In this document: one piece after another, positions 1,273 through 24,962 of the stretch
Layout: each line of letters opens with the position of its first letter
Numbering within the stretch: position 1 is the first letter of the stretch
NCBI GenBank assembly: GCA_051047955.1
Contig: JBPGPT010000023.1
Span: 1 to 64,000, forward strand
DNA length: 64,000 nucleotides
Reading direction: 5' to 3'
Origin: Cystobasidiomycetes sp. EMM_F5
Taxonomy: Eukaryota
Program-made: the position numbers and the translations under genes
Notes under the pieces: generated by a model
What the model saw: the letters and a program-made list of their open reading frames with translations, nothing else
Database searches by the model: none
What the model was told of the DNA's origin: nothing

Positions 1273-4200
1273 ATGTCGGCCGTCGCGAGCATCCCGCGCA
1301 CTGCGACCTTTGCGTGGTCGCACAAGGGTGCCCACCCGAGTCCTCTCTTGGCTACGGGGACAGTGAGCGGCGCACTCGACGAGTCGTTTACCAGCCAGGC
1401 GAGTCTGGAGGTGTGGGAGGTGTGGGGGGACGATGAGCAAGAGGGCAGCGAGGAGGAGAGGTGCAGGGCGAGGGTGAATGTGAATGCGAGGTGAGTGAGC
1501 GAGCGAGCGAGCGCACGAGCGGAGCGAGTGGGCGAGTGAGTGGAGTGAGGTAGAGTACAAGACGAGCAGCGAGCCTCTCAGTTTGTATATTGTATACTCT
1601 GTCCTCCTCCTCCCCCTTCTCATTCCACTTCATAACCTCATCCTCATCTGTTTGTACACATTCTCCCCTCTTAGTCTACTCTTTATTCCCATCCACCCCC
1701 TGTCTCTCCCTCTCTCTCCACTCACTCCCTCTCCGCTCATCCACCCATCCACCCATCCACTCATTCCCCATCCACCGCTGTGCCTGACTGACGCGCCACG
1801 TCGACCGACACCCAAAAATCCACACGCTGACTTGCTCTACTATCCCAGATTCAACCGCCTCGCATGGAGCGCACCGAGCGATGCACGGCCGAGGGGAATA
1901 CTCGCAGCGGGAATGGACAGTGGAGAGGTGGGTCTGTGGGATGCAGAGCGACTCTTGCAGGGAGAGGAGGAGGGGGAGGAGAAAGCTAAGGCTGGGTAGG
2001 TGCTTTTTGAGGGTGGTGGGTGTTGAAGACGGTGCACTGATGCGGTGGTGTTGTGTTGTGATCTCGTCTGGCGATATACTTCTGGCCGTATCCTCTGTAC
2101 GACGTACTCTTCCGACAATCTATTCTATGGGTCATCTATCCTCTGACGACGCATTCTCTGAATCTCTCCAATCTCATAACGCAATGCATCACCCTCATTC
2201 GGGCTGTTGCATGGTCGACGCTCTGCCATTGCCCTCTACATGACTACTATGCCTCGTCCTGGTCATTTCGACCTCTCGAAAACTCGCAATGGAATACACA
2301 CTACATGCAGAGCATCCATATTCACCACAGACCGGCACAGAGGGAGCGTGAGGGGTCTGGCATGGAATGCCCTACAGCCAAATCTGTTTGCATCGGGGGC
2401 AACAGACGCAGAGGTGAGCGCAGCGTCGAGGCGCAGTGTCAAGGCGCGGAGCGCCGAGACGACCAAGTGCTGTGATGAATGGACAATGCGACTGACTCAA
2501 TTATCCATTCTCTACATTCTCCTTGACTGCATATCGCATGCTGCGATTTGTCGATACCATCACTCTTTCCGCCCCTGTCTACCTCTTCGCTTTCTTTTAT
2601 ACTGCCCTTTCCCCTGCTCTTCTCTTCCCGTACCCCATCCAACCACCGCACGCCTCCGCACTCTCTTTTGCAGATCTTTATCTGGGACACCAAGAATCTC
2701 AGCAAACCATACGGCCCATCAGCCAACAAGTCGCGTCATCTGACAGATATCACAGCACTAGCGTGGAATCCTAGTGTCGCTCATATACTTGCAACCGCCT
2801 CCGCTTCCGGAAGTACTGTCGTATGGGATCTGAAGGGCAGACAGGAGGTAATCCACCTGTCATATCTCGGAAATCAGGGGTCCGTCTATTCTCAGGGCCC
2901 GAAACCAGTCAGTAGTATCTGCTGGCATGCGGAGAGGGTGAGGCGTGGCGATGCCATCTATCCAAATGGGCAAGATCTGATGTTTGTACGTCCTTCTGCC
3001 AGGGAACGCGAGTCATTACAGCCTCGGAAGATGACGGCGCTCCGGTCGTATTGGTGTGGGATTTGAGAAATTATAGAACACCTGAACGCGTTCTCTCTGG
3101 TCACGACAAGGGGATCCTCTCGCTCGATTGGTGTAAAGAAGACCCGGAGCTCCTCTTTTCATGCGGCAAAGACTGTAGGACGCTTGCATGGAATCCTTCT
3201 ACCGGCGAGATGGTGGGAGAGGTGCGTCGGAACCAAGTATGGATCCAAATAGAGTAAAATATGCTGAATGCTTTTGACTTTTAGCTTCCCGCAACGACAA
3301 ATTGGGCATTTGATGTCGCGTCATGTCCACGCAACCCGAGCTTTGTGGCGGTCGCTTCATTCGACGGCAAAATTAGTGTGTCATCGTTGCAAAACACTTC
3401 TGCTCCGGCACAGGCATCAACAGGACAGCAGCCCATTTCATCAGACAACGCAGCCGACATCTTCAGTGCTGGCAACCTGAGCACTTTGGCTGCTCAAGTT
3501 CACCCTGGTGTTTCCCTCAGGCAGCCACCGAGATGGCTAAAACGACCAGTGTCGAGCAGTTTTGGTTTTGGAAGCAAGCTTGCCACCGTTGGTCCCACCA
3601 TGACCCCTCAGATCAACGCGCAGACGGGACAGCCAATGCCCGTACCGAGACCTGTACATGTCCATCAGGTCGTCACGGACTCGGACATTGTAGACCGTGC
3701 AGTCAAGCTAGACCATGCGATTGATTCACAGTCGCTCTCGGACTTTTGTAGCCAAAAACTGACTGTAGCAAATCAGCACGGTCAGGATGCGAGCTCGGAA
3801 GCTAGCATCGAGAGTTGGAGGCTCTTATCTTCCCTCTTTCAAGCCAATTCAAGGGACGAGCTCGTCTCTCTACTCAATTTTTCCAAAGCAGAGGTACAGC
3901 AAAAAGTTGCAACTGCCATCAGGTCCTTCAAAGGCACTTCTGGTCAGGCAGAAGGACTTGGAAATGGCAAGACTAGCTCGTCTGAATCTGGAGACGCAGA
4001 TGATGCAGGTAGTATTGCGCGAGAACCGCTAGTCACTTTTGCAGATCAACACGCTTCCAGCGATAATGCCGCGCGATCGTCGGAAGGCGAGGGCGCAGCC
4101 GCTACACGAGCTGTACAGGGTAACGAGGCTACACCGTCAGAGACGGAAGCAAGTGTCAGTTTAACCTCCGATGCTACCAAAGTTGCAGACTCTGAAGTCA

Positions 4201-6471
4201 CCGAACCGAGCCTATTTGGTGATGACGGCGCTCTCAATCAAAACGCCCAACAGCAGGCGGCAGCGGACTTCTACTCATCGCTTGGCAGTGGTACACAGTC
4301 GGACCGACCAGCTACATTATCAGACCGGTTCGGTCTGTCGCAACAAGGTATGGAACGTGCTGGTTCGTCTGTAGCTGCGACTGCAGGATCCAGGCCGTCA
4401 TCGGTCGCGAGCGACAGCATCAAAGCATCGACATTCCGCATTTATCCAAAGGACGAATCCGAAGCGGACAAACTACTCACACGAGCTCTCGTGCTTGGCG
4501 ACTTTGAGAGCGCAGTGACGCTTTGCATATCTGCTGATCGCTTCGCCGATGCACTCCTGTTGTCTGCTCAAGGCGGACCGGAGTTGCTTGCCAAAACTCA
4601 AAAGGCCTACTTTGAGAAACGGACCGGCACCCTTCCCTTCCTCCGCTTGTTCCAGTCTATCATATCGAACGATCTTACAGATATCGTACAGAATGCCGAC
4701 CTGAAAGACTGGCAGGAGATCTTTGTAGTCTTGTGTACCTTTGCCAAGAACGAAGAGTATCCTACTCTTGTCGAACAGCTTGGTCAACGCCTGGAATATC
4801 AATACGCTGTCAGCAAGACGACGGGATCAGATGCTGCAGCAGGGTTGTCTCAGCGAAAAAGCGCAGTCCTGTGCTACCTCGCTGCTGGCAAGCTCGAAAA
4901 GGTGGTCAATATCTGGAACGATGAATTGAAGGAGGAAGAGAGGGCTGTCGAGAAGAGTATGGGCGCCAGCCCAAATTCAAGCGCTGCCAGATTCACTTCA
5001 CATGCGAGGGCGCTGCAGTCGTTCATAGAGAAGGTTACTGTCTTCATCAGCGCAAAGGCCTATGTTGATACAGATCTGGCACATTCGGCATCATCATTTG
5101 ATCAGGGTGCGAGTCACGGTAGCCAATCGTACAAGCTTGCACCCCTCTATGACAGATATCACGAATACGCTGAACTTTTGGCTTCGCAAGGCCTCGTTTC
5201 GCTGGCAGTGAGGTATGCAAGCCTTACGCCGTCTGACTACCAATCACCCGGTAGCGGCGTCTCTGCAAGAGACAGATTGCAAACCAGCACCGGTAAGGCT
5301 TTCAAAGGTACGATCAAATCGTCTTTTGAAATTGTAACTGTTGGCTGACTTCTACACCTTGTAGCACCTAGCAAAATTTCGCAACAGTCACAGCAACCAA
5401 ATGTTGTTTCTGCTGCCGTCCCAGCATATCAGGCGGTCCAGCCGGCTATGGTCCCGTTTGCGAGCACTTCATACTACCCTGTCACGGCCCCGATCATTCC
5501 CCAGCAAGCCCAGCAACAACCGCAAGTCGCGTATGATGATCCATATCGACCTGCCGCTAGCGCATCGCAGCCGCAACAAGCGCCATATGGGCAAACTTTG
5601 GGTCCCTACCCCTCTCAAAATGGTTATGGTCAGGCACCAAACGGCTTTGCAACAAACGGGTACGGTCAGACATCATACGGGCAACAAACCATAGGTGGCA
5701 ATCTTCCCTATCAACCAATTCAGCAAGCCCCGCCCCCGCCGCAGCCAGTGCAGCCGCCCCCGCCAAAGAAGCCAGTAGGAGGATGGAATGTATGTGACTG
5801 TAGCTTTCCGGTATTTGCCATGCTAAGATCGCTTAATTACGTAGGACGCGCCAATTATCAAACGCCCGTCGTCGACCGCGAATGCTGCTGCAAAGGCTTC
5901 GGCTGCACCGATCTATTCGCCATTCCCAAATGCCTCGCCGACAACGCCAAACGCGTACGGGGGACCTCCTGCTTCTTTCCAGGGCCCGCCGCCCGCGGGA
6001 GGAACCGGGAATGCCGTCCCACCTCCGCCGCCATCAAGAGGGACTACAAGGACACCCGCTCAGCAAATGCAGCAGCAGCCGTTCGTGTCACCGCCACAAG
6101 CCCGCGGGCAAGCATCAGGCCCCGCGCCTGGTCCGCCTGGTCATATGCAGCAGAACACGGTCTACGGTCAAGGTCCTGCCGGTATGCAGCCACGACCTGG
6201 TAGCAGAGGGCCAGTGCCTATAGGTATGCAGTCTCAGCAGGGGCCGCCGGCCGGCCGATATGGACCTCCTCCAGGCCAAGGTCAAATGCAGGGCCCGGGG
6301 CAGGGTCAACAGATGCAAAACGGACCGCCACGTACAGTGCAGCAACAACAGGGTCCGCCATACAGTAATTCTCAGATGCAAGGTCATCCCCAACAGCAAT
6401 ACCAACAGCCACAGCAGCCACAACAGCAGCTTCCAATGGTGCCGCCTCCACCTCCTCCTTCCCGCAGATAA
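1273..6471 (+). CDS. SEC31: COPII outer coat protein Sec31 (multi-exon)
   Basis: N-terminal IPRTATFAWS..LLATGTVSGALDESF, WD40 repeats (RFNRLAW, HRGSVRGLAWN, GHDKGILSLDWC), PPRWLKRP motif, ACE1 region (ALVLGDFESAV, FLRLFQSI), GWND motif and Pro-rich tail. Introns at 1491-1848, 1996-2310, 2414-2673, about 2938-3002, 3222-3284, 5309-5364 and 5790-5844. Confidence 0.96.
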
Positions 6472-16572: not shown

Positions 16573-16817
16573 AGTGCTGCGCAAGAGCGAGGATGGTCGA
16601 GATGCGAATGGTCAACAGGTAAATACAAAACAGTGGCAAACAAGCAGGCAGCAACGTATTTATGCAAACCGATAGAGCAGTCGCCGCACTGCACCGTGCA
16701 CACAGCTTGCTCGGATTGCATTGCTATAAACAACGTACGCTGAGCATTACAAGCGTTGCAAGAATCCATCGCATATCTGCGTGTCCGCTAGGGAGATATT
16801 ATTCCCAAGAGACGCAG

Positions 16818-19364
16818 CTAGCGATGACGCTCGAGCTCCTCCATGGCCTTGACGCTAGCGTCAACAGCTATGATGTTGAGAAGTCAGCAAAATCGTACCG
16901 CGAATAGAGTAGTATCAAAGTGGACGCACTGGCCAATTTGCGCGTAGCATTCTTGCCTGAAGCTACAAAGATGGCATCGGCCAACACGACGCACTTCCAG
17001 ATCGACTTGTCTTCGCTAAACCACTCTAGCCACACCAGTCTAGCCGGGTCTTTTTCAGCCACGGCCAGAGCATGAGTGAGCGATGGGATGGTGCCCGTCG
17101 ACTCTTTCGGATTCTTCAACAAGTTAACCTTACCGATACCTTGTGAGGTACTGCTTCGGTCCGTGAACTTCCACGAGACGATAGTTTGTACCACGTTGCG
17201 AGACGAGGCAGTTTCAGCCTCTTGAATCGCATCCGATTTCTTGCTAGAGGTAGCCTGGCCAACAAGCTGCATCTGCGAGTTGAGCACTCCACAGTACACG
17301 CCCCCACTGAAGCCCTTCACCGATAAGACGTAGTACTTTGTGCGTTCAGACTCCTTTCCGGCATTGGGTAAAGATGCATAGAAAGAAGGTGGGAACGGGC
17401 CAGGCTTGTCCTGCGTACTATCATCAGTGCAAGCAAGGAGTGTCCCTTAAGTCACTCAAGCTTACCACCTGCATTTCAGCGTGCTTTCGCAGCTGTGTTG
17501 GGTTTGACGGGAACAGCTGAATAGGCTGAAGGAATGGCGTCCCATTGGGTGCAATCACCCCATTCTTCCCAAGTCCATTCGCAACTGTCTGTTGGTTCGA
17601 AGTACTTCGAAGCTTCCCATTAGACTCTATAGCGGCCCAGCCCTGATCAGGCTTCTGATCGCCAGAAGTAGCACCATCATCGCTTTCCCAGCCTAAAGCA
17701 GCTTTCGGTGGCTCATTCAGCGTGCCATTAGCAGTAGGAGGTTCCGGCAAGAGCTAACGCACGTATAGTGTCAGTAGGTCACGCATAGAACTCTTACTAT
17801 TGTGATCTTACCTTGAGATGCTCAATGGCTTTAAATGCCGCTCTAGCTTTCGCTAGTTTCTTGTCTGTAGAGGTCGCAACGCCCTGTGATATCACAACGC
17901 CATTGACTTTGAGCCGTGCGACTGCTTTCTTGGGCGTGCTGCCCTCTTCATCGTATGACAGGTACCGCTTATGCTTCTTATCGAAGTACGACTGGCCTTC
18001 GATGTACGTGATCGGGTCGCTGCGGACGGCTTGCAACGCCGCGATGTATTCTGCGTCAGACGCAGTCTTCTGAGGTACATTGTTATTGGTACTTGTTGTA
18101 GGCAACGCCGGCGATCCCGCCAACCCTGCATGTCCAGCTGGTGCGGATGCTCCATTCTGAGCTGTTACAGGCTGCCAGCCGTTGACACCCAATTTCTTCT
18201 TTGGCGCGGCTTCGTCTTGGCTTGCATTACCATTTGTCAGTTTTTTACCGTTTGCAGCTTTCTGATTCGAACTGCTGTCCTGGATGTTGCCTATACCAGC
18301 ACCATCTGAAAGTTTCGGCGGACTAATCTGATGCTTTTGTAAGTGCTTGTTGTCGCTTACCCGTGCTGGTATCAGCTTCGATGGAAGGGTGGCGTCTTTA
18401 GAGAAAGAAGATGTCGTTGTTGCTTGTGCAAAGCCAGATGGCTTGCTACTCGACGGTCGTGAGGCTCCGCTTGATGATTCCTCTATTCTCGAGTAACCAT
18501 TTCTTGCTGGAGCCGCAATAGTGCCGTAATTGGCTTGACCGTTGGAGGATGCATTCGGTGGAAGAATGGATTTTACAACTGGGCGAGACAGGAATGGTAA
18601 AGGTAGAAAGCCACAGAAGCGATATCTCCGCGTTTTCTGCATCGTTTGGGCGGTCTCGGCCTCATCTTGTGCCGTAACCACCTCAGGTTCCGGTGCTTGC
18701 CCATGGGTATTAGCGTGATAATCGTGTAGCTGCTTAGCATCTGCAAATAGCGGTCAGCGTCATATGTCTGACCATGAGAGCATATGCAAAGTCGCACATG
18801 GCTTGACGAGCTCCTCTATCCAACTTTGTAGAACATCGACCCCGTGCACTTGGGCGACAGCACCGACAAATGCCTCGAAGGTGTCGGCACGAGCTGTACT
18901 TCATACCATCAGTACATGCGCTGTACTGGACGTCGACCACCTACTTTTCACATCGTCGCGAAGCTTGTCAAAGCTGGGGTGCAGTTGAAGCGCTTCATGC
19001 ATGCCGTATTTTGTGGCAAACATGGCCAGCGTTGTATTCATGACGAGCCTTTGGCGAATCGCGCTCAGATAGCTGACGCGCAATCTGGGATACGTGCGAT
19101 AGAGGTAACGTGCAACAATGGAATATCTGCGACCGGACCATCAGCAAGTTTTAATGGAGCTCCAGCTTGCATGACGCACAATAGAGCATCACCGACCCAT
19201 TCGAGGCGCTCATTGTCGGCAAAGTCCTCGGTGTAGCTGAATTTGCTACGCGGCACGCTCTGGAGGTTCTTCGAGCTGTGAACGAAAGCGGTCTGAAAGA
19301 CGAGTGGTGACAGCGAGGGTAATGCTGGGGCAGCAAAGTCGCCCAGCGGAACTGCAGTGTACAT
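16818..19364 (-). CDS. RNase III-domain protein with three dsRBD-like C-terminal modules
   Basis: AFVHSS..DNERLEWVGDALL signature, RQRLVMNTTLAMFA, VRADTFEAFVGA. dsRBD-like helix-2 motifs DKKLAKARAAFKAIEHL, SSKKSDAIQEA and GKNATRKLATVDASVKAMEEL. An alternative upstream start at 19436 is possible via a short intron. Confidence 0.85.
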
Positions 19365-19577
19365 ATGACCTGGCGAGGTAGAATTAGGTACCGCCAGCTC
19401 GAGCGCAAAGCCTCGACACTCACTGCCAAACAGCATATTTGATTCCAAGATACAGTATTCAGAAGTCCAGTCGTTGCGAAATCAACATCTGCAAGTGGTG
19501 GCAACGAGAAAGAACACGAGTCCGAATCTGGGCAAAGGCCTCTTCAAGCCGGGCATAAGCTACGTGTCAACAGCCGT

Positions 19578-21721
19578 TTACAATTTGGCCCTATTCCGTC
19601 GCTGCCATTCCTGATCTACTACCTTTTTCAACTGTGCCTTGACAATCTTGCCGTTTGGATTCCGTTCGATCCGAGTGCTTGCATCGTCATCAGTTGGGAG
19701 ACGAAGCATGACCATGACCGGAACAGCGTGACGTGGTAGATGCTTCCGTGACGCGTCAATAATGTCCGCCTCGGTGACCTTGGATCCTGGGCGGAGAACG
19801 ACGACGGCAGCTGGAAGTTCGCCCAACTTAGGATCCTTGACGGCCACAACAGCGCAGTCCTGAACGCAAGGATCACGGAATAGAGCATTCTCTACTGTTG
19901 TCGCCGCGATGTTCTCCCCACCTCGAATGATAATGTCCTTGGCTCGATCTTGGATATATAGAAAGCCTTCGGTATCGAATGACCCCAAATCACCACTGTA
20001 AGACAGGTCAGCATACACAATTTTGCTAGCGCAGTGTATACACACCTTTTAAAGAAGCCATCGGACGTGAATGCAGCCTTCGTAGCCTTCTCATCGTTGT
20101 AATAGCACTTCATGACGTTCGGGCCGCGTATGCAAATCTAGGCCACACTCCTTGCCTAAGCAAAGGATGCCGTGCATCGTTAACGGATAGCTCACCTCGC
20201 CAATCTGTCCGGTCGGCAGCTCTTTCTCGTTTTCGTTCAGGATCTTGATATCGTTGACTAGCGATGGCAAACCGCAACTCAAGGGCCGTTTCAGGTAATC
20301 CTCTCCAGCATGGCCAGCCACAACTGCGCTTGTTTCTGTAAGACCATACGCTTGACCGATGACCAAAGTAGGTATGCGGGCTGCAAGTGCGGGTACATTA
20401 TCACCGCACGGGGCTCCTCCAAACGCGATGGCCTCCACACTGGCGAGCTCGTCGTTTTTGGCGGATTCGAGAAGCTCTTGCGCTATAAACGGAACACCGC
20501 CAGTATATGTCACACCTTCACTCTTACACAATCGCAACGCTTCTTTCGTAGTCCATTTGTGCATCATAACGACGCGACCGCCGATGGCGGTAAATAGCTG
20601 CAGAAAGGACGCGCATCCGCTGCGAAGACTTTGTCAAACCACGCATACACTGCCGCAAGCAAAGCAGACTTACGTCACGTGGAAGAATGGAATCGCCATC
20701 AGGATGACTTTTTGTGGGTCTTCAGGCTGCTGTATCACCACTTCCTCACCCTTCCGGACCGTCGCTCGCCGACCTCCGTAGACTGTATTGAACAGATTGG
20801 TGATGAATGCCCTTTGCGTCGTTAGAACAGCTTTAGGAAACGAAGTTGTACCTGTCGACAATGTACAGGTAATCAGAGGAGTTCTTCGCAGTAATCATTA
20901 TTGCTTCACGGACCAGATGTAAAGAATATGAAGCCATCGTCGTCTGGTTGTACTCGGACATCGGGCAGTGATTTAACGTCTGCTTGATCCCATTTGCCGG
21001 AAGTAAGTTTCCCTTGTAGGGCTATCATATGTTTCGGTACGGATGTGTTGGTTCCGCTGACGAGAATCGCCCTTAAGCGCAGAGGTTTCAGCAGCTCTTT
21101 TTGACCGTCGAGTACGGCTGCCCTTTCCTCGTCGACGATTGCGAGCACGCAATTGGCTATTTTCAGACAGTGTACAATGCCATCTGGAGCCACCCATGCA
21201 TTGACGAGGGCGGGAACGCAGCCAAGAAGATGACAAGCCCAAAATGACTTGAGGCCGTTGCGAGCATATCAGAGCAATGCAAGGCAAGCAGAGATTCATT
21301 GCTCACGATGACCCAGTCCGGGCGGTTTCTCATTAGAATGGCCACCTTTTCGCCCTTTTGACACCTGTATTCCCTTGATAGTAAGGCCGCGAGAGCCACG
21401 ACGCGCTTATGAGTCTGTGAGAGATGCACAACATACACTCAGTTACGACTACCTCCAAATCGCCATCTATCGCACCTCAGCGTAAGTGAGGCGTTCGTTG
21501 CCCAGTACTAGATATTCGCGCTTAGCAAAAGCAGAGGATACTCCCAGCCAGAAGAGTCGCATCGATGGAGGAGCATTCTTGAAGACTCGCATCTTCCTGC
21601 CATCAATGACCGCCTCGTCAAGCTCGTGCATTTGCCCTTTTGCGGTGAGGATCTCGTCGCATTCTCGAAAGGTTCTTACGGGCTCAGGAAGCAATGAGGA
21701 GGCTGTTGATGCGACTGACAT
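19578..21721 (-). CDS. AMP-binding acyl-CoA synthetase (fatty-acid/4-coumarate-CoA ligase-like) with peroxisomal PTS1 (-AKL)
   Basis: FFTSGTTSFPKAV P-loop, QAYGLTET, GDLG, DRAKDIIIRGGENI, NPNGKIVK, C-terminal AKL. Confidence 0.94.
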
Positions 21722-22842: not shown

Positions 22843-24962
22843 TTAGGTACAATCGGCCAATGAGGAAAACAGCACCTTGTCGCCAACAGGTGTTGCCAGC
22901 AGTCTGAATAGCGGGCGTCATCAGCCTTGCCTAATGCTCGGTCGTGAGCTGGAATAACCTACTCTACAAAGTCGGGACGGCAGAACAGAAGCGAAGGCCG
23001 CGCTTGAAGATCATGCCCGCTGACTCCGTCAGTATCCGATGATCCACCGAACCAAGCTATTCCTTCCTGTGAACCCGTCCCTGTGTTCTGATGCCCGCCT
23101 ACTTCGTCTTCGCTGAGAACTCTCAACACTTCTATACATCGCAGACATAGGATTGCATACTGATTGCCGTTAGGGTGCTGGTTTGATTGATTCGGGAAAT
23201 GCACAGCGTACAGCTTGCGAATGACTTTGGCTAGCGTACGCGTGATGGGTGATGTGTCTCGGAGTCGCTTTCTGGTTTCGGATCCAGCCATATAAATGAG
23301 ATTGAAGAGGCTCATCGCCACCAGCTCCGTACGGAGCAGTGCAGACTCTTGCGTGAGGAGATGAAAGTCAAGGTCAACAACCGGCAGATGCTGCACTAGC
23401 AGGGGGAATTTTTCTCGTATGATACTGGCAGCAAGAGGATGCTTAGATATTGCATCGCGATTTGCATCTGTTAGAGCCACCCTCGATAAGACTAGTAAGG
23501 CTGCATCAAGACCCGCGCCGACTCCGTAAGATGGCCCGCCTCTTTCTGGAGGGAAAGGCACCACGTCTGGACGGTTCCACTCCAGAAATTCGTCGACCAG
23601 CTCAAGGATTGCTCGCGTGGCCCAGGCTGGGTGATGATCAAGCTGTATAGCTGGACCGAAATTACCAATCATTTGCAGGATGTCCTTCTGACATTGCAGC
23701 AATTGGGTGGGGCCGAGCTGGACTTCATTCTCCGCGTGTGGAATAGTATTTGGCCTCTGATGCTCGTGCTCAAGGAGTAAGAGGCTGGATTCGATGACTC
23801 TAGCATCTCTTGCAAGCATTGTGTGTGAACCAGGATCGTAGGAGAGGTTGCGGAGAATTCCGAGACATGTCATTGCGAGGGTAGTGCGGGGCAAGCCCGC
23901 AAAGTATGACGAATGAGGGCGGTAATGCTCCTTATCGTGGGTCTCAAGGCCAAATTCATCGTCCAGCATGCTCTCACACGCTTGGCGGTAGCTTCTTTTC
24001 TTGGGTATGCTAGACCCTATGCTTGCGCCCAATTTTGAAGTACTTTTGGACAGCATGGGTGCTTGCATACTCTTGCTGAAGTTCTCGACAGCATTGGCTG
24101 GGCGTTTCTCCCCGGCGCGTGCGCTAGTATCATCGTCATGTTCTGCCTCGCTGTCGACGTCGGAATCTTCTGATTGACCGCGGACCACAGCTCGGAACAA
24201 ATCGAGCAGCTCTTCTAGAAGCTCACGATGAGACAAGAGACTGTATTTTGCGCCTTCGGGAGCCGTCGAGATGAGAGCGATTGCGTTAAGGGCATATGAG
24301 ACTTCTGCCGCGAGCCTTGAGCGAATGCACATCTTGAGTACGCGCGCATCGACATGGCCTGCTCACGTCGCCGCGAAGAATTCAGAGCAATCAGTACACC
24401 TTCTCCGCAAGGGCTCTGCTTGTATTGGCAGGTACGAGTGCATCTCGATGAAGATCGGGCTTTTTCGGCAACGCGAGATTCCGGGACAAGGAGTGAAAAT
24501 ACTCACCCAAATCAGCGACGGACCTCTGGCTTCGTCTAGATAGAGCACTCGCGACAGTATCTTCTATCTGGACCGGATCCCAGACTCCTGGATTGACGTG
24601 CCCCGGCCGGCTGACTGGCACATACTCGATCCGCTGCCTCTTGAGCACCCGCGTCGGGGCGGGCGGTCCTGCTGCTGGAAACGGGGCTGGAGGCTCAGCG
24701 ATGTGGTAATTTACAACGAAGACTCGTGGTCGCAGTATCGCACGCTGGACTCACGTCTAGCAGCCCCGGCGACTAAGCGTCCTTCGTCCTCTCGCCCCTC
24801 CTGCTTGGTCGGTCTCTGGCTTTCGGCTCGCGTAGCGCCATTGGCCTGGGTCGTTTGCAAGGACCGCTTGGCCGACGCACCAGCCTGGGCTCCGTCATGA
24901 GCTCTAGCATCCGTCCAGCCGTTCATATGCGTACCATGGGTGAGAAGGAGAATGCAGCCCAT
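22843..24962 (-). CDS. SWI1/ARID1 C-terminal (BAF250_C-like) domain protein; no ARID domain seen
   Basis: RQRIEYVPVSR..ADLG|HVDARVLKMCIRSRLAAEVSYALNAIALIS..LGILRNLS..ALLVLSRVALTDANR..LVQHLP. The last exon LLATPVGDKVLFSSLADCT ends at 22843. The start codon is uncertain. Confidence 0.7.

Follow-up and report, generated by a model that had tools for sequence, protein, structure and literature searches.

The RNase III gene and its transcripts

The window, by which we mean the whole stretch of 64,000 nucleotides that was analysed, carries on its minus strand a gene for an RNase III protein at 16818-19436. The splice model divides the coding region into seven exons that together make 2283 nt and encode 760 amino acids, with the start ATG at 19436 and the final base of the stop codon at 16818.

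19436-19180, 19126-18945, 18893-18798 and 18740-17812, minus strand: exons 1-4 of the RNase III gene (splice model)
17753-17466, 17410-16930 and 16867-16818, minus strand: exons 5-7 of the RNase III gene, stop included (splice model)

The six introns are 51-62 nt long, all run from GT to AG and have branch sites of the CTGAC/CTGAT type. The search of public runs listed no RNA run and returned small shares throughout; four runs still yielded spliced contigs. In these contigs, which are at least 99% alike, exact skipping joints are found for introns 3, 4, 5 and 6, and for intron 1 the loose end of a contig at 19180 continues into the initial 14 bases of exon 2. Intron 2 lies outside the contig coverage. 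Spliced contigs thus support five of the six introns and show the gene at 16818-19436 to be genuine, expressed and spliced according to the model.

The 760-residue protein aligns over its full length with an 853-residue hypothetical protein from Cystobasidium minutum (P0003), and both begin with MLFG. Upstream on the same strand lies a gene for an AMP-binding ligase, the stop codon of which is at 19578-19580, about 140 bp from the RNase III gene; this stop, together with the MLFG start common to P0003, makes a longer N-terminus impossible. The genes neighbouring the RNase III gene in the window are ordinary housekeeping genes.

Domain organization

The protein can be divided into the following parts.

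18736..19328, minus strand: RNase III catalytic domain, residues 37-180, in exons 1-4 (Pfam PF00636, PDB phmmer, P0003)
18064..18735, minus strand: linker 1, residues 181-404 (224 residues), A/S/P/G-rich and of low complexity, predicted disordered
18583..18630, minus strand: short conserved motif RRYRFCGFLPLPFLSR, residues 216-231, within linker 1 (family alignment)
17812..18063, minus strand: dsRBD1, residues 405-488, canonical, with a KKLAK motif opening helix 2 (Pfam dsrm)
17399..17753, minus strand: linker 2, residues 489-588, including intron 5, predicted disordered
17198..17398, minus strand: module 2, residues 589-655, predicted degenerate dsRBD fold (AF2, structural matches)
16821..17086, minus strand: module 3, residues 693-760, predicted degenerate dsRBD fold (AF2, ESM Atlas)

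A preliminary description of this DNA had placed three dsRBD-like units at approximate ranges with which those of dsRBD1, module 2 and module 3 agree. It had also noted a long disordered linker and a very short N-terminus, both of which we find: linker 1 has 224 residues of predicted disorder, and only 36 residues precede the nuclease domain. Comparison with P0003 separates conserved domains from drifting linkers, the identity being 69% for the RNase III domain, 44% for dsRBD1, 55% for module 2 and 51% for module 3, against 28% for linker 1 and 18% for linker 2. Modules 2 and 3 (51-55%) are as conserved as dsRBD1.

The stretch of P0003 equivalent to linker 1 has pLDDT values mostly below 50, as does its counterpart of linker 2 (pLDDT < 50), and no Pfam family was matched by exon 5. 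Within linker 1, 13 of the 19 residues around the RRYRFCGFLPLPFLSR motif are identical to P0003, compared with 28% for the whole linker, and the core FCGF[LI]P[LI]PFL is kept in the window protein, P0003, P0012, P0017 and P0018. This motif may have a docking or localization role.

The nuclease domain

The single RNase III domain with intact NERLEWVGD and ADTFEA motifs that was described earlier is clearly recognizable: Pfam PF00636 (Ribonuclease_3) scores 33.3 bits on the 60-residue exon 2 alone (cut-off 27) and 68.1 bits on full-length P0003. NERLEWVGD is encoded at 19188-19214 and ADTFEA at 18871-18888 (minus strand). Both motifs are also intact in P0003, and in the PDB search with that protein their counterparts in Drosha are NERLEFLGD and ANCFEA. 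The catalytic residues are the Glu and Asp of ERLExxGD and the Asp and Glu of the second motif, with roles known from the bacterial enzymes.

In the preliminary description neither a helicase nor a PAZ nor another RNase III domain was visible, and Pfam likewise gave no match to any of these in the exon pieces or in P0003. Neither the window protein nor P0003 thus unites a helicase, a PAZ domain and a pair of RNase III domains in the manner of a canonical Dicer.

According to phmmer, the PDB matches of the nuclease domain are Drosha, bacterial RNase III, Rnt1p and the non-canonical Dicer with PDB code 7dey, which a table in PMC8874510 gives as the Dicer of Scheffersomyces stipitis. With the nuclease domain of P0003, 7dey is the best single-domain match (53.7 bits), Rnt1p scores about 39 bits, the bacterial enzymes 39-45 bits and Kluyveromyces polysporus Dcr1 19.8 bits. 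The top total PDB score for P0003 is that of Drosha, 65.2 bits summed over two domains (33.6 and 29.3). Exon 2 of the window gene gave 19 PDB matches, the ranking of which does not discriminate between RNase III families, and the sole PDB match of exon 1 was a chance one to a phage capsid (E of 1). When ESM Atlas was searched with the nuclease domain, every cluster obtained was a generic RNase III one of viral, bacterial or archaeal origin.

In P0003 the Rnt1p chains (4oog_C and 5t16_A, about 39 bits) align right from the N-terminus, over residues 17-164, which is a point for a housekeeping role. Points against a role of the Rnt1/Pac1 type are that the Rnt1p score is not above those of the bacterial enzymes and is below that of 7dey, that there is no long N-terminal domain and that 224 residues lie between the nuclease and dsRBD1.

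The first dsRBD

The window piece containing dsRBD1 passes the cut-off of Pfam PF00035 (dsrm; 25.0 bits, cut-off 23). P0003 has no dsrm match at E values of up to 1, the one related match being a weak one to DSRM_2 (E of 0.79). Against PDB sequences, the dsRBD1 piece matched only the dsRBD of ILF3 (E of 0.78-1.3) and one chance entry.

The predicted structure of this domain is well defined. The equivalent residues of the P0003 model (477-566) have pLDDT values of 90-96, and 45 of the best 50 chains listed align to them. The best structural match is the dsRBD of Drosha (Z of 8.0, r.m.s.d. of 2.8 Å over 77 residues); the dsRBD of 7dey follows the model with a Z of 7.3 and an r.m.s.d. of 2.6 Å over 67 residues, and the Rnt1p dsRBD (1t4o_A) is also among the matches, with a TM score by target of 0.60.

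The C-terminal modules

The HMMER comparison with dsrm that was proposed earlier recognizes dsRBD1 but not the other two modules: module 2 scores 14.5 bits (E of 0.055), below the cut-off of 23, and module 3 has no Pfam match in the window pieces or in P0003. In the family as a whole, module 2 gives a dsrm match at E values of up to 1 in only two of 14 members (best E of 0.0038). In structure prediction, the models of exon 6 and P0003 present all three modules as α-β-β-β-α units with dsRBD structural matches.

In the AF2 model of exon 6, module 2 consists of a helix (8-13), three strands (26-32, 37-43 and 49-55) and a second helix (58-69), and the block pLDDT means are 72-93. Helix 2 opens with a KK pair that is nearly invariant. 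Among the best 50 rows listed by VIA for this model, 17 are dsRBD chains, which align to residues 17-74 with Z of 3.0-3.5. The corresponding residues of the P0003 model (684-746) match the second dsRBD of DCL1 with a Z of 5.4 and an r.m.s.d. of 2.5 Å over 58 residues, and tandem-dsRBD chains span dsRBD1 and module 2 in that model. Module 2 is thus predicted to have a dsRBD fold, with modest scores.

Module 3 is interrupted in its second helix by intron 6 (16868-16929), and the AF2 model of the window piece contains its strands (125-132, 137-144 and 147-149). The complete α-β-β-β-α unit is present in the P0003 model at 785-851, with pLDDT values of 57-71. An ESM Atlas search with residues 775-853 of P0003 gave dsrm-bearing clusters in all ten rows listed, with TM scores of 0.77-0.84 over 70-76 residues and feature scores of 0.86-0.88, under the bar of 0.9. 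On these values module 3 is a candidate for a degenerate dsRBD fold.

AF2 packs modules 2 and 3 against each other. Foldseek gave no match at an E value of 0.001 or better with the exon-6 model of the window, and the best VIA Z values for this model were only 3.9 and 4.3. The top whole-model VIA rows were MHC-like platforms (EPCR, H-2Db and viral MHC mimics) with an r.m.s.d. of about 5 Å over about 95 residues, which we read as the geometric resemblance of two side-by-side α/β modules and not as homology. A profile of modules 2 and 3 found no PDB sequence at E values of up to 10, and hhalign of dsRBD1 against this profile gave a probability of 0.86% (E of 0.064), so that internal sequence homology is not detectable by this comparison.

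Distribution of the family

Exon 6 alone, compared with 1.84 billion representative proteins, found relatives at E values of 1e-40, which shows that the protein is not a chance reading frame. Only 12 believable matches to the C-terminal tandem were obtained from the same number of representatives. One protein, P0016, has the tandem modules next to a zinc finger and has no nuclease, suggesting that the tandem may be a portable unit that binds RNA or protein. The sole named family member is annotated merely as a hypothetical protein. A single member was retrieved from the annotated C. minutum genome by word-based searches, which brought up no other fungal RNase III protein and are blind to distant paralogs. 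The word-based search of exon 6 against longer proteins produced 933 candidates and none at E ≤ 0.01; it missed P0003 and is hence uninformative. The one locus obtained from a single-protein scan of metagenome contigs was treated as spurious, as in tblastn it matched over one 33-residue segment (48% identity, E of 7e-5) and the rest of the protein model, P0003 and P0016 were unmatched.

The preliminary description had proposed a small-RNA or antiviral nuclease of independent evolutionary origin and had named, as one thing that would speak against this, the gene being the only Pac1/Rnt1 ortholog of its genome together with relatives sharing the architecture; as to the latter half, the C. minutum protein P0003 has the whole architecture. 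Neither this architecture nor any RNAi genes of Cystobasidium were described in the papers that our literature searches brought up. The layout, in which a long disordered tether joins a nuclease to a canonical dsRBD and a conserved pair of degenerate dsRBD-fold modules follows in tandem, appears to be undescribed; it is unusual and was seen in no more than a small group of yeasts.

Probable mechanism and role

Judged by its sequence, the protein belongs to the single-domain eukaryotic RNase III enzymes (Rnt1/Pac1/Dcr1/Rde3 type), has an architecture specific to its lineage and is predicted to be active. By analogy with other members of this class, its most likely mode of action is that of a dsRNA endonuclease which is Mg-dependent and homodimeric. 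Two copies would pair through their RNase III domains into one processing centre, as is inferred from all single-domain RNase III enzymes. At each site the conserved acidic residues in the two motifs, NERLEWVGD and ADTFEA, would use Mg2+ to cut one strand of the dsRNA, and cleavage of a stem would leave 2-nt 3' overhangs. dsRBD1, with its KKLAK motif and at the end of its 224-residue disordered tether, would hold the duplex, and modules 2 and 3 most likely form a platform for substrate selection or protein docking.

The likeliest role for such an enzyme is to serve as the RNase III of nuclear RNA processing in the fungus, which would cut the 3' ETS of pre-rRNA and the precursors of snoRNAs and snRNAs; passages of PMC6643885 and PMC8022950 were counted as fitting this housekeeping role. 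The enzyme may in addition feed small-RNA pathways, in the manner of Cryptococcus Rde3 and Candida Dcr1. In the passages of the literature available to us, Rde3 is an Rnt1-related single-domain enzyme with a part in siRNA biogenesis (PMC6643885) and CaDcr1 of Candida albicans performs both Rnt1-type processing and siRNA production (PMC3579876); given these precedents, the processing and silencing readings are not mutually exclusive. Taken as a whole, a homodimeric dsRNA nuclease with nuclear RNA processing as its likeliest role, and possibly with small RNAs among its products, is our best explanation, and we hold it with confidence evenly poised between acceptance and doubt.

It is unlikely, although worth serious consideration, that the protein is instead a dedicated non-canonical Dicer, that is, a paralog beside a conventional Rnt1/Pac1 that dices long dsRNA as a homodimer like budding-yeast Dcr1. 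Its substrates would be transposon, viral or RdRP-made dsRNA, and the extra modules would set the product length or recruit partners of the Argonaute pathway. In the relevant passages of PMC3579876, budding-yeast Dcr1 is told apart from Rnt1 by this kind of layout, in which one RNase III domain is combined with at least two dsRBDs and both PAZ and helicase are missing, an Rnt1-like N-terminal domain is absent, and the rarity of the tandem (12 in 1.84 billion representatives) suits a lineage-specific innovation. The higher score of 7dey (53.7 bits, versus 39 for Rnt1p, with the P0003 nuclease domain) also points this way, but the CTG-clade Dcr1 does the Rnt1 job too (PMC3579876, in part), so that this similarity does not discriminate and sequence similarity leaves the choice between Dicer-like and Rnt1 roles undecided. 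Moreover, K. polysporus Dcr1, which has been studied more than any other non-canonical Dicer, reaches just 19.8 bits, and the neighbours in the window are housekeeping genes.

We also regard as improbable, to a similar degree, that the protein is the sole, dual-function RNase III of its lineage, combining Rnt1-type processing with siRNA production and using the extra modules to broaden its substrate range. CaDcr1 is a precedent for this (PMC3579876, in the passages cited), and Rde3 is described as needed for endo-siRNAs (PMC6643885) and yet kept in an RNAi-deficient species. Of the single-domain PDB matches, a CTG-clade Dcr1 comes closest to the nuclease domain. The retrieval of one family member from C. 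minutum also points weakly in this direction, but the blindness of word-based searches to distant paralogs means that this does not establish single-copy status.

A more elaborate version, in our view distinctly doubtful, would make the protein a non-canonical Dicer independently built by this lineage: a homodimer with a tethered dsRBD1 and a rigid, pseudo-dimeric pair of degenerate dsRBDs that measures siRNAs or hands them over. If true, it would be the third independent origin of RNase III dicing of the class-1 type, after yeast Dcr1 and the plant and Mucor RTL/R3B2 proteins.

It is very improbable that the protein is not a dsRNA nuclease in vivo, being a mitochondrial mL44/MRPL3-like protein (Pfam RM44_endonuclease, PF22935, scores 32.3 bits on P0003 with a cut-off of 27, and both dsRBD1 and module 2 have mitoribosome chains among their structural matches) or an R3B2-like enzyme shifted to single-stranded RNA (Mucor R3B2 carries one RNase III domain along with two dsRBDs in passages of PMC7763443), since the catalytic motifs are intact, PF00636 scores far higher on P0003 (68.1 versus 32.3 bits), none of the 37 PDB sequence matches at E values of up to 1 is a mitoribosomal chain and the N-terminus common to P0003 has acidic residues, which in our reading is unlike a mitochondrial presequence.

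The favoured reading, a homodimeric nuclease of nuclear RNA processing, bears on a wider pattern, as fungal single-domain RNase III enzymes have been repeatedly repurposed between RNA processing and silencing (Rnt1, Dcr1, CaDcr1, Rde3 and R3B2). If the protein is the Rnt1 equivalent of its lineage, it shows the extent of architectural drift that is possible in that essential enzyme; should it prove to be separate, it becomes a candidate Dicer that evolved independently.

Comparison with known RNase III systems

Rnt1 and Pac1 have an extended N-terminal domain before the nuclease and a dsRBD directly after it. The window protein has neither feature: it resembles Rnt1p and Pac1 in its single RNase III domain, which is intact, and in the canonical dsRBD that comes after it, but differs in its N-terminus of 36 residues, in the 224-residue linker before dsRBD1 and in its two extra degenerate modules.

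To our knowledge, Mucor R3B2 performs no canonical dsRNA cleavage, whereas the catalytic motifs of the window protein are canonical. The plant RTL layout is a single RNase III domain with two dsRBDs. R3B2 (in passages of PMC7763443) and plant RTL are alike to the window protein by description only, in the combination of one RNase III domain with several dsRBDs; the same passages report that R3B2 yields Dicer-independent mRNA degradation products. The likeness to Cryptococcus neoformans Rde3 is also one of description only, that of an Rnt1-related basidiomycete enzyme that carries a single RNase III domain, without PAZ (PMC6643885, in part).

Like the non-canonical Dicers of budding yeasts (Dcr1 of K. 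polysporus and N. castellii, CaDcr1 and 7dey), the window protein joins one RNase III domain to at least two predicted dsRBD folds and has neither a PAZ nor a helicase domain. Dicers of the Dcr1 type make siRNAs of about 23 nt out of long dsRNA. The Dcr1 layout of one RNase III domain and a second C-terminal dsRBD, as given in passages of PMC3579876, is present here and exceeded, with three predicted dsRBD-fold modules instead of two and with long disordered linkers between them. Since the lineage belongs to the basidiomycetes, a Dicer-like role here would have come about independently of the budding-yeast Dicers.

Finally, Drosha leads the PDB matches in total score (65.2 bits) and also gives dsRBD1 its best structural match (Z of 8.0, P0003 model), but it carries two RNase III domains per chain and works with its partner DGCR8, whereas the window protein is a single-domain enzyme.

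Gene structure and transcription

On the minus strand, the RNase III peptides and those resembling dsRBDs are spread over different frames of the stop-to-stop ORFs from 16818 to 19481. Placing the splice sites gives a gene of seven exons with a coding frame of 2283 nt (760 aa); its six introns are 51–62 nt long, all six are bounded by GT..AG and the branch sites are CTGAC/CTGAT-like. The ends of this spliced model are exactly the coordinates, 16818..19436, that the preliminary description had assigned to the gene. P0003, an 853-aa hypothetical protein from Cystobasidium minutum MCA 4210, can be aligned with the model from the first residues (MLFG...) through the C-terminus.

Features of the RNase III gene and its product
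19436-19180, 19126-18945, 18893-18798, 18740-17812, 17753-17466, 17410-16930 and 16867-16818, minus strand: exons, by splice-site placement
19188-19214, minus strand: NERLEWVGD, RNase III signature motif
18871-18888, minus strand: ADTFEA, second RNase III motif
18583-18630, minus strand: short motif of linker 1 (aa 216-231), RRYRFCGFLPLPFLSR, core FCGF[LI]P[LI]PFL
17812-18063, minus strand: dsRBD1 (aa 405-488), Pfam dsrm 25.0 bits against a cut-off of 23
17198-17398, minus strand: module 2 (aa 589-655), predicted dsRBD fold
16821-17086, interrupted by intron 6, minus strand: module 3 (aa 693-760), probable dsRBD fold

Contigs from four public runs were placed on window positions 16700-19600, giving five records, all at least 99% alike. 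Four of these skip introns 6, 5, 4 and 3 (16868-16929, 17410/11-17464/65, 17754-17811 and 18741-18797, respectively). The fifth breaks off at 19180, where its 14 overhanging bases, once reverse-complemented, match the start of exon 2, in support of intron 1; coverage thus spans introns 1, 3, 4, 5 and 6, with intron 2 lying outside it. As the joints in the contigs coincide with the modelled introns, the gene is transcribed, and its splicing follows the model at five of the six introns, in samples drawn from four different studies. The runs concerned (X1, X2, X8 and X11) are labelled 'DNA?', 'RNA?' or '?'; all have intron-less contigs that are at least 99% alike, so the records derive from RNA. 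The same species is present in the samples of all four studies, and some of the runs are filed under the codes of other organisms.

An AMP-binding ligase gene lies upstream in the same orientation and has its stop codon at 19578-19580, and for this reason the N-terminus of the RNase III protein cannot be longer. The gap between this stop codon and the ATG (19437-19577) is only ∼140 bp, leaving room for no more than a very compact promoter and 5' UTR, unless these overlap the 3' end of the neighbour.

The nuclease domain

Pfam was run on the separate exon translations and on the intact P0003. Exon 2 (60 aa) matched Ribonuclease_3 with 33.3 bits (cut-off 27), exon 3 gave a sub-threshold match to Ribonucleas_3_3, and exons 1 and 5 had no Pfam match; full-length P0003 scored 68.1 bits for PF00636 and 64.0 bits for PF14622. 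By analogy with bacterial RNase III, the metal-binding acidic residues are supplied by the NERLEWVGD and ADTFEA motifs. Both are present in the window model, and the P0003 copies line up with the corresponding motifs of Drosha. The single RNase III domain with both motifs intact that was noticed at the outset is thereby borne out and, judged on these motifs, it is catalytically intact. The same Pfam runs on the exon translations and P0003 matched no helicase, PAZ domain, second RNase III domain or other catalytic family, in agreement with the initial reading, which had seen none of the first three.

The dsRBD-like modules

Module 1 is a bona fide dsRBD. It exceeds the Pfam cut-off, its second helix begins with a KKLAK motif and the equivalent residues of P0003 (477-566) have pLDDT values of 90-96 in the AF2 model; P0003 itself has no Pfam dsrm match at E values up to 1. 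On comparing the P0003 model with 48 161 solved chains, 45 of the 50 matches listed fall on dsRBD1 and include the dsRBDs of Drosha, bacterial RNase III, ADAR1, DGCR8, R2D2, Dicers, Staufen and PKR, among others; the best of those listed has a Z of 8.0 and an r.m.s.d. of 2.8 over 77 residues.

Module 2 scores only 14.5 bits against Pfam dsrm (E = 0.055), and only two of 14 family members have any dsrm match. The AF2 model of exon 6, from a 14-row alignment, has a mean pLDDT of 72.6 and a pTM of 0.71. In this model module 2 consists of a helix (8-13), three strands (26-32, 37-43 and 49-55) and a second helix (58-69); the block means of pLDDT are 72-93. Foldseek returned no match to the exon 6 model at an E of 0.001 or better. 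With VIA-align, dsRBDs or dsRBD-bearing chains make up 17 of the 50 matches listed, all on residues 17-74 and with Z values of only 3.0-3.5. In the P0003 model, module 2 (684-746) superposes on DCL1 dsRBD2 with a Z of 5.4 and an r.m.s.d. of 2.5 over 58 residues, and the alignments to the tandem-dsRBD proteins Loqs-PB, TRBP, NF90 and DRB4 span dsRBD1 and module 2 jointly. By prediction, module 2 has the dsRBD fold.

Module 3 has no Pfam match. In the AF2 model of the window piece it has three strands, the last helix being removed by the exon boundary; in P0003 it is a complete alpha-beta-beta-beta-alpha unit at 785-851 (pLDDT 57-71). For the ESM Atlas model of P0003 775-853, all ten structural matches listed are dsrm-bearing clusters (TM 0.77-0.84 over 70-76 residues), and the feature search places dsrm clusters at 0.86-0.88, under the bar of 0.9. 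Judged within these larger models, module 3 is probably a dsRBD fold. Of the three dsRBD-like modules originally described, the first therefore stands above the Pfam cut-off and the second by predicted fold, with the third only probable.

The best of the listed matches to the whole exon 6 model (16931-17410) are MHC-like alpha1-alpha2 platforms (EPCR, H-2Db and viral mimics) with Z values of 3.3-4.3 and an r.m.s.d. of ∼5, too low to claim more than resemblance, and homology to these platforms was not adopted. The pTM together with this weak whole-model resemblance suggests that in the AF2 model modules 2 and 3 pack side by side as one sheet-plus-two-helices unit, a hint of an intramolecular pseudo-dimer.

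Conservation and distribution

Identity to P0003 is 69% in the nuclease domain (aa 37-180), 44% in dsRBD1, 55% in module 2 and 51% in module 3, so that constraint on the two degenerate modules is no weaker than on the canonical dsRBD. The long linkers, at 28% (linker 1, aa 181-404) and 18% (linker 2, aa 489-588), are predicted to be disordered. The core of the linker 1 motif is common to all five sequences covering this region (the window protein, P0003, P0012, P0017 and P0018), and the linker around it is fast-evolving.

An exhaustive phmmer search with exon 6 against 1.84 billion representative proteins found 13 proteins at an E of 0.001 or better. Eleven are close relatives with 48-56% identity, mostly exon-sized ORFs; P0015, a repeat protein, is spurious. 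P0016 (291 aa, from an ENA assembly) is a homolog of the module 2-3 tandem (33% identity, E = 1.7e-7) with no RNase III domain; ahead of the tandem it has an N-terminal C2H2 zinc finger, weakly matched by zf-C2H2_jaz (E = 0.14). JAZ-type fingers bind dsRNA. It is possible that the tandem is a portable cassette. Among the 8000 candidates scored in a word-based search with P0003, the only matches were the query, three fragments, a Drosha from an ant and one long protein that is unrelated; P0003 is the only named family member. On similarity alone, the window is probably from a relative of C. minutum. The module 2-3 architecture has a narrow distribution.

Seven of the relatives' fragment ORFs (P0006, P0007, P0009, P0010, P0011, P0012 and P0014) stop within strand 1 of module 3 (...WLEW..[ED][DE]K..), which the window reads through uninterrupted (WLEWFSEDKSIWKC). 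As all seven end at the same strand, this suggests that the relatives' genomes have an intron there that the window does not.

Possible mechanism and role

If the enzyme behaves as the RNase III family does, two copies would homodimerize through the nuclease domain, dsRBD1 would capture the duplex and two-metal cleavage of both strands would leave 2-nt 3' overhangs. Conservation and packing point to the module 2-3 tandem as a putative selection or docking platform.

We give an even chance to this being the Rnt1/Pac1/Rde3-type processing RNase III of its lineage, perhaps contributing to small-RNA biogenesis as a secondary function. Several papers show role and architecture to be poorly coupled in this family: Rde3 is described as kept, at a similar size, in the RNAi-deficient C. 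deuterogattii (PMC8022950), and CaDcr1 reportedly carries out the functions of both Dicer and Rnt1 (PMC3579876). A sole RNase III with such a dual function is unlikely here. We also consider it improbable that the gene is a dedicated Dicer-like paralog, along the lines that the preliminary description had suggested. The genes around it in the window are ordinary nuclear housekeeping genes, none of them RNAi-related: RFC1 lies downstream and the AMP-binding ligase upstream, and farther away are AAR2, ribosomal S9/S16, ATG16, TRAPP Trs85 and a Rev3/zeta-type family-B DNA polymerase, among others. A role other than that of a dsRNase is very improbable. Two long open frames in the window, 3285-5345 (+) and 22962-24362 (-), of 687 and 467 aa, match no Pfam family at an E of 1e-5 or better.

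Comparison with known RNase III enzymes

As an observation the finding is real and tidy: a known enzyme family is shown to include a new architectural variant. It does not yet amount to evidence for a new silencing enzyme. Against PDB sequences, the nuclease domain of P0003 scored 65 bits with Drosha (a sum over the two Drosha domains, ∼33 and ∼29 bits), 53.7 bits with 7dey_A, 39-45 bits with bacterial RNase III enzymes, ∼39 bits with Rnt1p and ∼20 bits with K. polysporus Dcr1; mitoribosomal mL44 gave no match among the PDB sequences. These scores do not place the protein in any single eukaryotic subfamily. Rnt1 and Pac1 typically have an extended N-terminal domain and a dsRBD adjacent to the nuclease domain, whereas the window protein has neither. 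A table of PMC8874510 gives 7dey_A as the apo-Dicer of Scheffersomyces stipitis. According to PMC3579876, an additional C-terminal dsRBD is what separates budding-yeast Dcr1 from Rnt1, and this feature of Dcr1 is present in the window protein.
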